From Escherichia coli O157:H7 (GTDB lineage: Bacteria; Pseudomonadota; Gammaproteobacteria; Enterobacterales; Enterobacteriaceae): a DNA stretch of 64,000 nucleotides. Both the position numbers and the translations under genes were made by a program. Below, in pieces: positions 32,915-35,191 of this stretch. The stretch is from the NCBI RefSeq assembly GCF_013167455.1, contig NZ_CP038328.1; one strand, written 5' to 3'. Under the pieces are notes generated by a model. It ran no database searches. It was given only the letters and a program-made list of their open reading frames with translations, and was not told the DNA's origin. The stretch's first letter is position 1, and the number at the start of each line of letters is the position of its first letter.

Positions 32915-33223
32915 GTGCAGCCGGTTTTGATGGAGAAAATTATGAACACCTTGTTTTTACTGATGGCTGAATTCAATACCCCAAACATTGAACTCTCAGC
33001 AGTTAGCCAAAAGTACTTTGGTATGAGTCCAGCCACGGCAGAAGCAAAAGCAAACGCTTGTAAGTTGCCCGTTCCAACATATCGCATCGGCACATCACAA
33101 AAAGCAAAACGTTGCATCAATATTCAGGATCTTGCGGAATACATAGACAAAAGGCGAGAAGAAGGACGTATCGAGTGGGAACAGGTCAGAACAGTCAAAC
33201 AGAAGGGCAAAGAAAATCACTAA
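32915..33223 (+). CDS. small DNA-binding protein (PrtN/excisionase-like)
   Basis: Last plus-strand gene of the early-left operon; …KYFGMSPATAEAKANACKLPVPTYRIG… HTH-like; probable start at 32930 or 32942. Confidence 0.45.
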   Translation: MQPVLMEKIMNTLFLLMAEFNTPNIELSAVSQKYFGMSPATAEAKANACKLPVPTYRIGTSQKAKRCINIQDLAEYIDKRREEGRIEWEQVRTVKQKGKENH

Positions 33224-33231
33224 AGAAAAAA

Positions 33232-33258
33232 CCCGCCTGAAGGCGGGTTTTCAAAAAG
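33232..33258. terminator. bidirectional intrinsic terminator at the prophage/island junction
   Basis: aaaaaacccgcctgaaggcgggttttcaaaaa: GC stem flanked by A-run and T-run. Confidence 0.7.
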
Positions 33259-33270
33259 CACCAGCTATGA

Positions 33271-33444
33271 TCATGCTGCTTTGAGACGACGAAGCTTACC
33301 CTGCTGCTCTTTACCAGAGACAGTAGCGTGAGTGAACGCATTAGGAGCAGCCTTCATCAGAACTTCAACAGCAGCACCCATACCTACGAATGCTTTCATT
33401 GTGTCGAACTTAACCTGTGGCTTGGTTGCTTTTTGATCTTCCAT
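33271..33444 (-). CDS. small protein (57 aa), third gene of the junction cassette
   Basis: Below the ORF-track size cut-off; ATG 33444 preceded by GGAG; MEDQKATKPQVKFDTMKAFVGMGAAVEVLMKAAPNAFTHATVSGKEQQGKLRRLKAA. Confidence 0.45.
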   Translation of the reverse strand: MEDQKATKPQVKFDTMKAFVGMGAAVEVLMKAAPNAFTHATVSGKEQQGKLRRLKAA

Positions 33445-33483
33445 AGAAAACTCCAGAAGTTATACCGAAACAATTCCTGTTGT

Positions 33484-33903
33484 TTACTCATCATCAATAG
33501 ATGATACGCAATATTTATTTTTAAATTTAAGGTTCTTTGGCGTAACTTCATCAGAGATATCAAAACCGTCCAGAATTCTATTGAATGTAGCTTCTGGCAT
33601 ATCATCATGAACAGAAATCTCACCCGATCGCTGCTTTCTAACCATGTTATCCACTCGCCAAATTATAGCTTCAGCGTAAACAACATAACTTGGATGCTTG
33701 ATAAAGCGATGATCACCAGAATTCAAGACGCAAGACGGATCGTGGGGGACACCATCCTTGATACTAGAAATATTAACAACTAAAACACAATAACAATCGT
33801 TAACGGGGTAATAAACAGGATCATTACAAATCACATGAAGATGATTGCATGGTCCAGTTGGGGCAAGCACAGTTCCTTTCCTGTATGGCTGATAATCCGT
33901 CAT
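33484..33903 (-). CDS. hypothetical protein (candidate toxin/effector partner)
   Basis: 139 aa, Cys/His-rich (…CNHLHVICND…HDPSCVLNSGDHRFIKHPSY…); ATGA overlap with the upstream gene. Confidence 0.55.
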   Translation of the reverse strand: MTDYQPYRKGTVLAPTGPCNHLHVICNDPVYYPVNDCYCVLVVNISSIKDGVPHDPSCVLNSGDHRFIKHPSYVVYAEAIIWRVDNMVRKQRSGEISVHDDMPEATFNRILDGFDISDEVTPKNLKFKNKYCVSSIDDE

Positions 33904-34472
33904 GATAATTGCAAAGAAAATTCCTTAAGTTTCTGAGATTCTTCCATTTTGCCAATTATGCGATTAGCCTCATCCTCGCTTTTACCCTCACTGATCAGCA
34001 TTTCTTTCAGGTCTATAGGCTTACGAGAATTGCCAGGATCGTGCCACTCTGGACAAACGCTTTCTAAATGCGTCATATTTGCGAGATCAAATCGGTTCAT
34101 ATGCCCATACCGAGAATAGATTTCATCTAAAATCCGGATATCTGCACGACTCAATTCATCAAAGACCTCGTCTGCATCCATTTCCCTCGGATCTGAACGC
34201 AACGATACATTATGCCCGTTCGTCTCTATCAAGTTGTACCAGTAGTCACCAATGCCTTCAGCCTTACCGCGAATCAAGTTCAGCGTATTCGACATGACTG
34301 GTCCAAATTTCATAGAGTAAAGGCTATCTTCGCCGATCATCCTGCCATGCTTCAAAATCGACTGGCGGTTAGACAGATAGAGCAGCTTCATCAATTTCAG
34401 ATATGCCATGCGCCCACCTCTCTTAAGAAGTAGGTATGCAGCCATTTGAGCTACTTTTTCTTCGCAAAACAT
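33900..34472 (-). CDS. Panacea (DUF4065/SocA-like) antitoxin-domain protein
   Basis: 190 aa; N-terminus MFCEEKVAQMAAYLLLKRGGRMAYLKLMKLLYLSNRQSILKHG resembles the N-terminal signature of Panacea-domain proteins (recalled); AT-rich. Confidence 0.5.
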   Translation of the reverse strand: MFCEEKVAQMAAYLLLKRGGRMAYLKLMKLLYLSNRQSILKHGRMIGEDSLYSMKFGPVMSNTLNLIRGKAEGIGDYWYNLIETNGHNVSLRSDPREMDADEVFDELSRADIRILDEIYSRYGHMNRFDLANMTHLESVCPEWHDPGNSRKPIDLKEMLISEGKSEDEANRIIGKMEESQKLKEFSLQLS

Positions 34473-35191
34473 ATAAGAAACCTCAAAGATAGTGAACTTT
34501 ATAATTATTCTCGATACTTCATGGGTTGCTTCATCACCAACATGAGCTTCTTATGGTGTGCCCACTTGGGCCTAAGCAACCAGTTACCTCGTTTGTCAAG
34601 TTTATAGCTGGCTTTAACCATGGTCAATTGAAGTGATGAGCAAATGATGCTTTCTAAGAATAACAGGTTCCCAATAGGCTCCCACAAAGTGCATAACTAG
34701 TTGTTTTTCAAAAACGGTACATCCTATCGAGCATTGGTGCAACGCTAAACCGACCACTCCAGTGAACGTCAGTTTTTTCAGGCATTGCGCTGGTTTGGTT
34801 GATTTTTTGCATTTCAGAATTACCGTGCATTTTCAAATGTAGAGATTATTTTATCGATATATCATGTGGTTATGTTATTCAGCATCACTGTTCAGGAGGC
34901 TCAATAACGGGGTACTATACCATAACAACAGGAAGCGCCTGTCTCATTGCAAAAGAAAATTGAGATCCTCTCAAGGCATGAAGCTCTCACGAAGTGAATA
35001 TCTAATCTTATTAGATGTTAGCGTTGTGAAAAGCAATGATAAACAATACAGATTCGACGATAAATAAAAATCACACATTAAACTCCGGTGATATCTCTCC
35101 CTGCTAATAGCACTGATAGAGAAAAAAAGAACCCAATAAACATTGGGTTCTTTTATGTAATACCTTTCATACCATCGAAGAACTTCACATA

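Follow-up and report, generated by a model that had tools for sequence, protein, structure and literature searches.

In a 64,000-nucleotide stretch of Escherichia coli O157:H7 DNA (contig NZ_CP038328.1), which we call the window in its full length, positions 33271-34472 hold three co-oriented minus-strand open reading frames (ORFs) of 190, 139, and 57 amino acids (Table 1). We conclude that positions 33484-34472, which comprise the two longer ORFs, very probably encode a type II toxin-antitoxin pair of the PanAT kind, belonging to toxin cluster T6 and carried as cargo near the attachment site (att) of a prophage, with a function that we infer from relatives. An earlier note on this DNA had described the three ORFs as a candidate toxin-antitoxin or defense cassette headed by a Panacea-like protein at the junction of prophage and chromosome. 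The three genes, their common strand, and their place at the junction were all confirmed, and the 190-amino acid protein does have a toxin-like partner, with which it shares a translational overlap and with which it forms mobile cargo at the prophage end. The further claim that the system is undescribed was not upheld, as the pair falls into a catalogued cluster with a validated member (Kurata et al. 2022, PMC8832971).

The Panacea (DUF4065) domain suspected in the 190-amino acid protein, hereafter PanA, was verified by profile search. Using hmmscan, PanA matched Pfam PF13274 (SocA_Panacea) with an i-Evalue of 3.7e-19 and a score of 70.2, the alignment covering residues 27-137 and positions 1-109 of the 113 in the model. 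RefSeq already names the entry a "Panacea domain-containing protein", and the protein also matches phrog_1281 (E=2.6e-26), while a sequence search of the PDB with PanA returned nothing significant. A helical C-terminal tail of about 40 residues follows the Panacea core (approximately residues 1-150), and its helix at 166-190 is predicted to be ordered (predicted local distance difference test, pLDDT, 86-96 in the fused PanA-PanT model described below). Ahead of the ATG, at a distance of 8 nucleotides, is a GAGG ribosome-binding site (34484-34481). Stand-alone Panacea domains can neutralize toxins directly, whereas in other PanAs this is performed by added domains or C-terminal helices, and Panacea has been proposed to act as a sensor (Ernits et al. 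2023, PMC10440598).

The 139-amino acid protein, hereafter PanT, begins within the end of panA. As had been noted previously, the stop codon of panA and the start codon of panT share the four nucleotides ATGA (33900-33903), and this overlap suggests that translation of the two genes is coupled. RefSeq models the toxin as a protein of 128 amino acids (WP_014640052.1) that starts at an internal GTG at 33870. However, the N-terminus MT.YQPYRKGT is kept among 44 homologues, which identifies the ATG at 33903 as the true start and makes the RefSeq model too short. PanT matched no Pfam, NCBIfam, or PADLOC family (chance-level matches to DapC and ICMT were disregarded), its sole PHROG match was to phrog_19071, of unknown function, and a PDB sequence search with the toxin profile yielded nothing significant. 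The family is nevertheless large, since a profile search of 1.84 billion representatives recovered 2,702 clusters at E<=0.001. An AlphaFold model built from the 44 homologues (pLDDT 92.4; predicted template modeling score, pTM, 0.86) is predicted to adopt the SH3-like barrel fold of MazF, Kid, and CcdB, and structures of MazF and Kid outscored CcdB in both structure searches. The earlier view that the protein has no recognizable fold thus stands at the level of sequence profiles and falls at the level of predicted structure. Its description as Cys/His-rich was accurate, with six residues of each kind. Across the family, H21 is present in 66 of 66 members and D55, C58, and H65 in 65 of 66 each; Ser/Thr at 47 and 72, Y76, G113, and S117 are further conserved positions, and all of the family-wide conserved residues are present in this copy.

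PanAT systems were defined by Kurata et al. (2022, PNAS, PMC8832971), with partners in 88 toxin clusters. Cluster T6 was designated there by HHpred as "EndoA/PemK/MazF-family RNAses", and its rows in the part of Dataset S1 consulted list a "noNTD" PanA, antitoxin then toxin, at a spacing of mostly -4 or -1. Three strains in these rows also appear among the loci that we found independently with the 139-amino acid family by tblastn and jackhmmer, and the spacings are identical: -4 in Pantoea septica LMG 5345 (L013), -1 in "Yersiniaceae bacterium 2016Iso4", now Chimaeribacter coloradensis (L012), and 15 nucleotides, listed as +15, in Gluconacetobacter diazotrophicus PA1 5 (L024). On the strength of these shared rows, we therefore identify the 139-amino acid protein as a T6 PanT, an assignment that runs via other T6 members and not via the Pseudomonas moraviensis sequence itself. 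The exact accessions of the present pair are absent from the supplement (PMC8832971), and the part of Dataset S1 searched contains no E. coli row for T6.

The validated T6 pair is that of P. moraviensis (WP_083354365.1 and WP_083201923.1), in which PanT is toxic, is rescued by its own PanA, and pulls down together with it (PMC8832971). This toxin selectively blocks the incorporation of 35S-methionine, i.e., translation and not DNA or RNA synthesis; RNA cleavage was inferred by the authors, the measured effect being inhibition of translation (PMC8832971). As in P. moraviensis, the Panacea antitoxin of the pair described here is of the stand-alone ("noNTD") type and is encoded ahead of a toxin of about 135 amino acids, with a -4 or -1 overlap; the toxin likewise has a MazF-like fold and no CDD or Pfam match. 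The PanA N-termini are also similar (MFCEEKVAQ here and MIFSEQKVAQ in P. moraviensis). Unlike the P. moraviensis pair, which is catalogued as "NotPhage", this copy resides in E. coli on a lambdoid prophage that integrates in dusA.

The association of the two genes was examined in 21 loci from one-genome-per-species contigs and in contigs carrying selected homologues. In all 24 loci that have upstream DNA, a PanA homologue lies directly upstream of the toxin on the same strand, additional loci beyond the 24 show the same arrangement, and the overlap between the genes is mostly 4 nucleotides. The 24 loci cover Gamma-, Beta-, and Alphaproteobacteria, including Enterobacterales, Vibrionales, Alteromonadales, Methylococcales, Burkholderiales, and several alphaproteobacterial orders. 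Their settings are diverse: a Shewanella pair lies in an island with a P4-type integrase and AlpA, pairs in Klebsiella, Enterobacter, and E. coli prophages lie within the tail module, and the alphaproteobacterial pairs are chromosomal. The genes flanking panAT differ in every context examined, so that the conserved neighborhood comprises at most three genes, and the DNA upstream of panA is not conserved even among PanAs that are 86-87% identical. The mobile unit is thus the panA and panT ORFs only, and these move together between unrelated mobile elements. Moreover, when PanA and PanT were modeled as a fusion through a (G4S)6 linker with a paired alignment of 20 rows, the pTM was 0.83 with a linker pLDDT of approximately 35, i.e., disordered. 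As the expected pTM for two unplaced domains of these sizes is about 0.5, this AF2 model would imply a confident PanA-PanT interface.

The three-ORF stretch is 100% identical to that of E. coli O103 RM8385 and of four further genomes among those listed, and to that of the isolated circular phage Lys8385Vzw. In this phage, the gene order is an xis-like (PrtN-family) gene, the 57-amino acid ORF, the 139-amino acid ORF, the 190-amino acid ORF, attP, and int, and identity with the window runs through 34735 and is lost from 34736. The cassette lies approximately 260 bp inside the prophage end. Integrases specific for dusA are known to insert in this gene (PMC4482086), as the prophage does here. Comparison with L032, an O157:H7 prophage without the pair, revealed the boundaries of an exchange: homology stops at about 33454-33457 and restarts at 34666, 70 bp inside the att end of the dusA-integrated lambdoid prophage, and where the window has 1.2 kb of cargo, L032 has an unrelated segment of approximately 0.8 kb with one gene of 177 amino acids. 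The full cassette was found in 204 of 5,426 complete E. coli genomes; among the sampled rows of these 204, neither ORF is disrupted and identity is 97.7-100%. About 360 more E. coli genomes have only the xis-like gene and the 57-amino acid ORF, with the panAT slot lacking the pair, and the layout of phage mEp460 equals that of the prophages without panAT. As such, panAT is a swappable accessory cargo beside attP of a dusA-integrating, Lys8385Vzw-like lambdoid prophage.

Table 1. Features at the prophage end of the window, with positions and strand.
Feature	Position	Strand	Basis or remark
Intrinsic terminator hairpin (predicted; 11-bp stem with 6 G-C pairs, then T-run)	33227..33252	-	Terminator scan and reading of the sequence
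57-amino acid ORF	33271-33444	-	RefSeq WP_000390073.1; phrog_2741, E=1e-34
Cargo segment, 1.2 kb (panA, panT, and 193 bp of upstream DNA)	33458..34665	.	Swap boundaries relative to L032
panT, 139 amino acids, cluster T6 type, predicted MazF/Kid/CcdB-fold toxin	33484..33903	-	ATG overlaps panA stop
panA, 190 amino acids, Panacea-domain antitoxin	33900..34472	-	Pfam PF13274 match; RefSeq WP_000458584.1
Candidate sigma-70 promoter of panAT, TTGACC-17-TAAACT	34599..34627	-	9/12 consensus positions; weak evidence
dusA 5' remnant	34726..34830	-	RefSeq partial tRNA-dihydrouridine synthase CDS; marks the prophage-chromosome junction, att crossover at ~34735

By analogy with the T6 relative and from the models, panA and panT would be translated from one transcript by coupling, PanA would bind PanT directly and hold it inactive, and free PanT would arrest growth through a block of translation. 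PanT would most likely be a sequence-specific endoribonuclease of the MazF type, although with a different catalytic set formed by the invariant H21, D55, C58, and H65. For the phage, the context would fit either an exclusion of competitors resembling abortive infection or a stabilization of the lysogen, and the recurrent placement of PanAT at accessory phage sites is a hint that these pairs may take part in conflict among phages.

The organization resembles that of MazEF and Kid-Kis (PemIK) in that an antitoxin-first operon has overlapping genes, and translation would be the target process, as known from the T6 relative. In contrast to MazEF, the antitoxin carries a Panacea domain and not an AbrB/SpoVT-type MazE domain, and it has no DNA-binding domain. 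PanT also differs from MazF and Kid in its very short beta1-beta2 loop and in two additional C-terminal helices (residues 104-131). The catalytic residues of MazF are an arginine, R29, and a threonine, T52. In a manual alignment, T52 falls on S46/S47, where Ser or Thr is kept in 66 of 66 family members.

Several observations weigh against our interpretation. R29 of MazF falls, in the same manual alignment, on the invariant L22, PanT conserving His/Asp/Cys/His instead, and for this reason the RNase chemistry of PanT remains putative. PF02452 (PemK_toxin) was matched by 0 of 66 family members even at E<=0.1, and hhalign of the toxin family with a four-sequence MazF alignment aligned only the C-terminal helix at a probability of 0.5%, the four-sequence template being too thin to weigh against homology. 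Type II systems typically regulate their own expression, for which there is no support here, as PanA lacks a DNA-binding domain and a search for a conserved operator found none. Toxicity and neutralization of the E. coli pair are transferred from the P. moraviensis relative, and 8 of 25 tested PanTs, including that of an E. coli prophage pair of cluster T1, were non-toxic in E. coli (PMC8832971). As regards a phage-defense cassette, which the earlier note had also proposed and for which the support is contextual, no family in PADLOC-DB 2.0 matched the 190-, 139-, or 57-amino acid protein at E<=1, and the literature searched, which on this point yielded only the two Atkinson/Hauryliuk papers, contains no report of a phage-defense phenotype for PanAT.

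Instead of being a MazF-type endoribonuclease, PanT could be a CcdB-like gyrase poison or another non-RNase effector built on the SH3-like barrel; such an effector might be a Zn-dependent or a Cys-His-Asp enzyme. We consider this unlikely: the specific inhibition of translation by the P. moraviensis T6 toxin argues against gyrase poisoning, the structure searches rank MazF and Kid above CcdB, and HHpred in Kurata et al. favors EndoA/PemK/MazF (PMC8832971). We also offer, as a speculation with rather poor odds, that T6 PanTs are not MazF RNases at all. The MazF barrel would then be a scaffold for an H21/D55/C58/H65 site, either a Zn or a Cys-His-Asp center, that acts on a component of the translation machinery, and in prophages the sensing role would fall to the Panacea domain of PanA, which would free the toxin on infection by a competing phage. 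If true, this would be a new abortive-infection system in a swappable att-proximal slot.

It is improbable that the pair is inert or decayed, i.e., a hitch-hiking remnant without toxin activity in E. coli or with a non-toxic function. The non-toxic PanTs of Kurata et al. (PMC8832971) and the mis-started toxin gene in RefSeq would agree with such a remnant; however, the near-identity of the intact ORFs in the sampled carriers, the presence of every family-wide conserved residue, and the retention of panA-panT across very distant taxa argue against it.

The Panacea domain was first characterized in SocA, and the antitoxin of the Caulobacter SocAB system (type VI) shares PF13274 SocA_Panacea with PanA. 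One RefSeq genome even labels the ortholog of PanA as a "SocA domain-containing" antitoxin, and PanA has a weak match to the NCBIfam SocA_antitoxin equivalog NF047745 (E=0.022). It could thus be asked whether PanA is a proteolytic adaptor that passes the toxin to ClpXP. The equivalog score is 14.4 bits, far below the cut-off of 190, and therefore the 190-amino acid protein is a PanA and not a SocA ortholog. SocB, moreover, is in cluster T10 and not T6 (PMC8832971), the proteins of the validated T6 pair are recovered as a stable complex in pull-downs, in the manner of type II systems (PMC8832971), and a confident model of the fused complex is predicted. A SocAB-like mode is accordingly very unlikely, and for a type II PanAT pair we would expect neutralization by direct binding and not by ClpXP-mediated degradation.

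A functional third component, with the 57-amino acid protein as chaperone, regulator, or second effector, can be all but dismissed, although the ORF is co-oriented, begins 39 nucleotides past the panT stop with no intervening terminator, has its own Shine-Dalgarno sequence (GGAG, approximately 8 nucleotides before the ATG, as previously proposed), and shares a terminator with panAT, and although Kurata et al. allow accessory third genes at some PanAT loci (PMC8832971): a homologue was found in 0 of 24 PanAT loci elsewhere, the ORF lies outside the swapped segment in a PHROG family of its own, and it is kept beside the xis-like gene at 97-98% nucleotide identity in the approximately 360 panAT-less E. 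coli genomes and in phage mEp460. On the evidence above, the three-gene unit and the SocAB-type reading were both rejected. The 57-amino acid ORF is a separate conserved phage gene and no component of panAT, so that the compact three-gene unit exists physically and resolves, by conservation, into a two-gene unit and an unrelated neighbor.

The setting of the type II PanAT pair also invites comparison with the moron cassettes of prophages that encode toxin-antitoxin or abortive-infection systems. Like these, panAT sits in a discrete slot of variable content, with a conserved phage gene on one side and attP on the other. It brings its own upstream region, is replaced by alternative cargo in related phages, and has homologous pairs at tail-module and tail-fiber moron sites of other prophages. 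In contrast to them, panAT is not known to have a defense phenotype and is absent from PADLOC 2.0.

The pair described here adds an E. coli copy to T6, a catalogued PanAT class of which one member, from Pseudomonas, has been tested. As this copy resides on an isolated, inducible phage, with natural "empty" and "alternative cargo" alleles in sister prophages, it offers a convenient setting in which to study T6 toxin chemistry, Panacea sensing, and phage exclusion versus lysogen stabilization. The chemistry is of particular interest given the invariant His/Asp/Cys/His on a predicted MazF scaffold instead of the Arg/Thr of MazF. The annotation can also be corrected, as the toxin comprises 139 amino acids from the ATG that overlaps the panA stop, and "MazF-fold PanT toxin" could replace "hypothetical protein".

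No conserved promoter or operator was found upstream of panA among the homologous loci, and promoter-like sites in the region numbered 3, against 4.4 expected from shuffles. A 14-bp near-palindrome, TTAACCATGGTCAA, at 34614-34627 overlaps the -35 element of the sole promoter-like site upstream of panA. The palindrome is not shared by the upstream DNA of homologous pairs and may therefore be due to chance, and neither it nor the promoter match is above chance. At the other end, the strong hairpin that had been placed at 33232-33258 and called bidirectional does exist, with its stem at 33252-33227, although a qualifying T-run was found on the minus strand only. The hairpin lies directly against the stop codon of the xis-like gene, which converges on it, and would terminate readthrough transcripts of panAT and the 57-amino acid ORF.

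Some features of the homologous pairs and of the neighboring genes are also recorded here. Pairs in Proteus adjoin tail-fiber genes, and one of them, at a prophage end, adjoins a gene with an Abi_2 domain (L007:2657-3721). In another E. coli element, the pair adjoins a polyvalent MuF/LPD protein of 2,791 amino acids (L039:1-4311). The alternative cargo gene of 177 amino acids (L032:3942-4475, minus strand; WP_000956557.1; phrog_4350, E=2e-103) corresponds to gp23 of mEp460 (L030:3442-3975) and fills the slot between the 57-amino acid ORF and attP in sampled panAT-less prophages, including O157:H7 strains and mEp460; its product matched neither Pfam nor PADLOC. The 57-amino acid ORF accompanies the xis-like gene in dusA-type lambdoid prophages with or without panAT, the two converge on one hairpin, and no transmembrane segment is obvious by eye in the 57-amino acid protein. 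RefSeq calls the xis-like gene (32915-33223, plus strand) a "pyocin activator PrtN family protein"; it occupies the position of an excisionase, mEp460 annotates an excisionase, and the PrtN-family name is probably misleading.

On the chromosomal side, an intact DUF2713 (YjbM-like) ORF of 318 amino acids (35192-36148, minus strand) lies between the prophage end and zur (~36467-36982, plus strand) and has its counterpart in a DUF2713 gene that near-identical genomes annotate; the cassette therefore does not replace yjbL/yjbM of K-12. The GC content is 40.6% in the cargo, 47.4% in the phage flank, and 35.0% in the chromosomal flank (34736-36400), so that the cargo, reported previously as AT-rich relative to both flanks, is AT-rich only against the phage side. 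The RM8385 record has a frameshifted pseudogene of 986 nucleotides in place of the DUF2713 ORF and zur offset by 29 nucleotides, so that, outside the cassette, the window and RM8385 differ.

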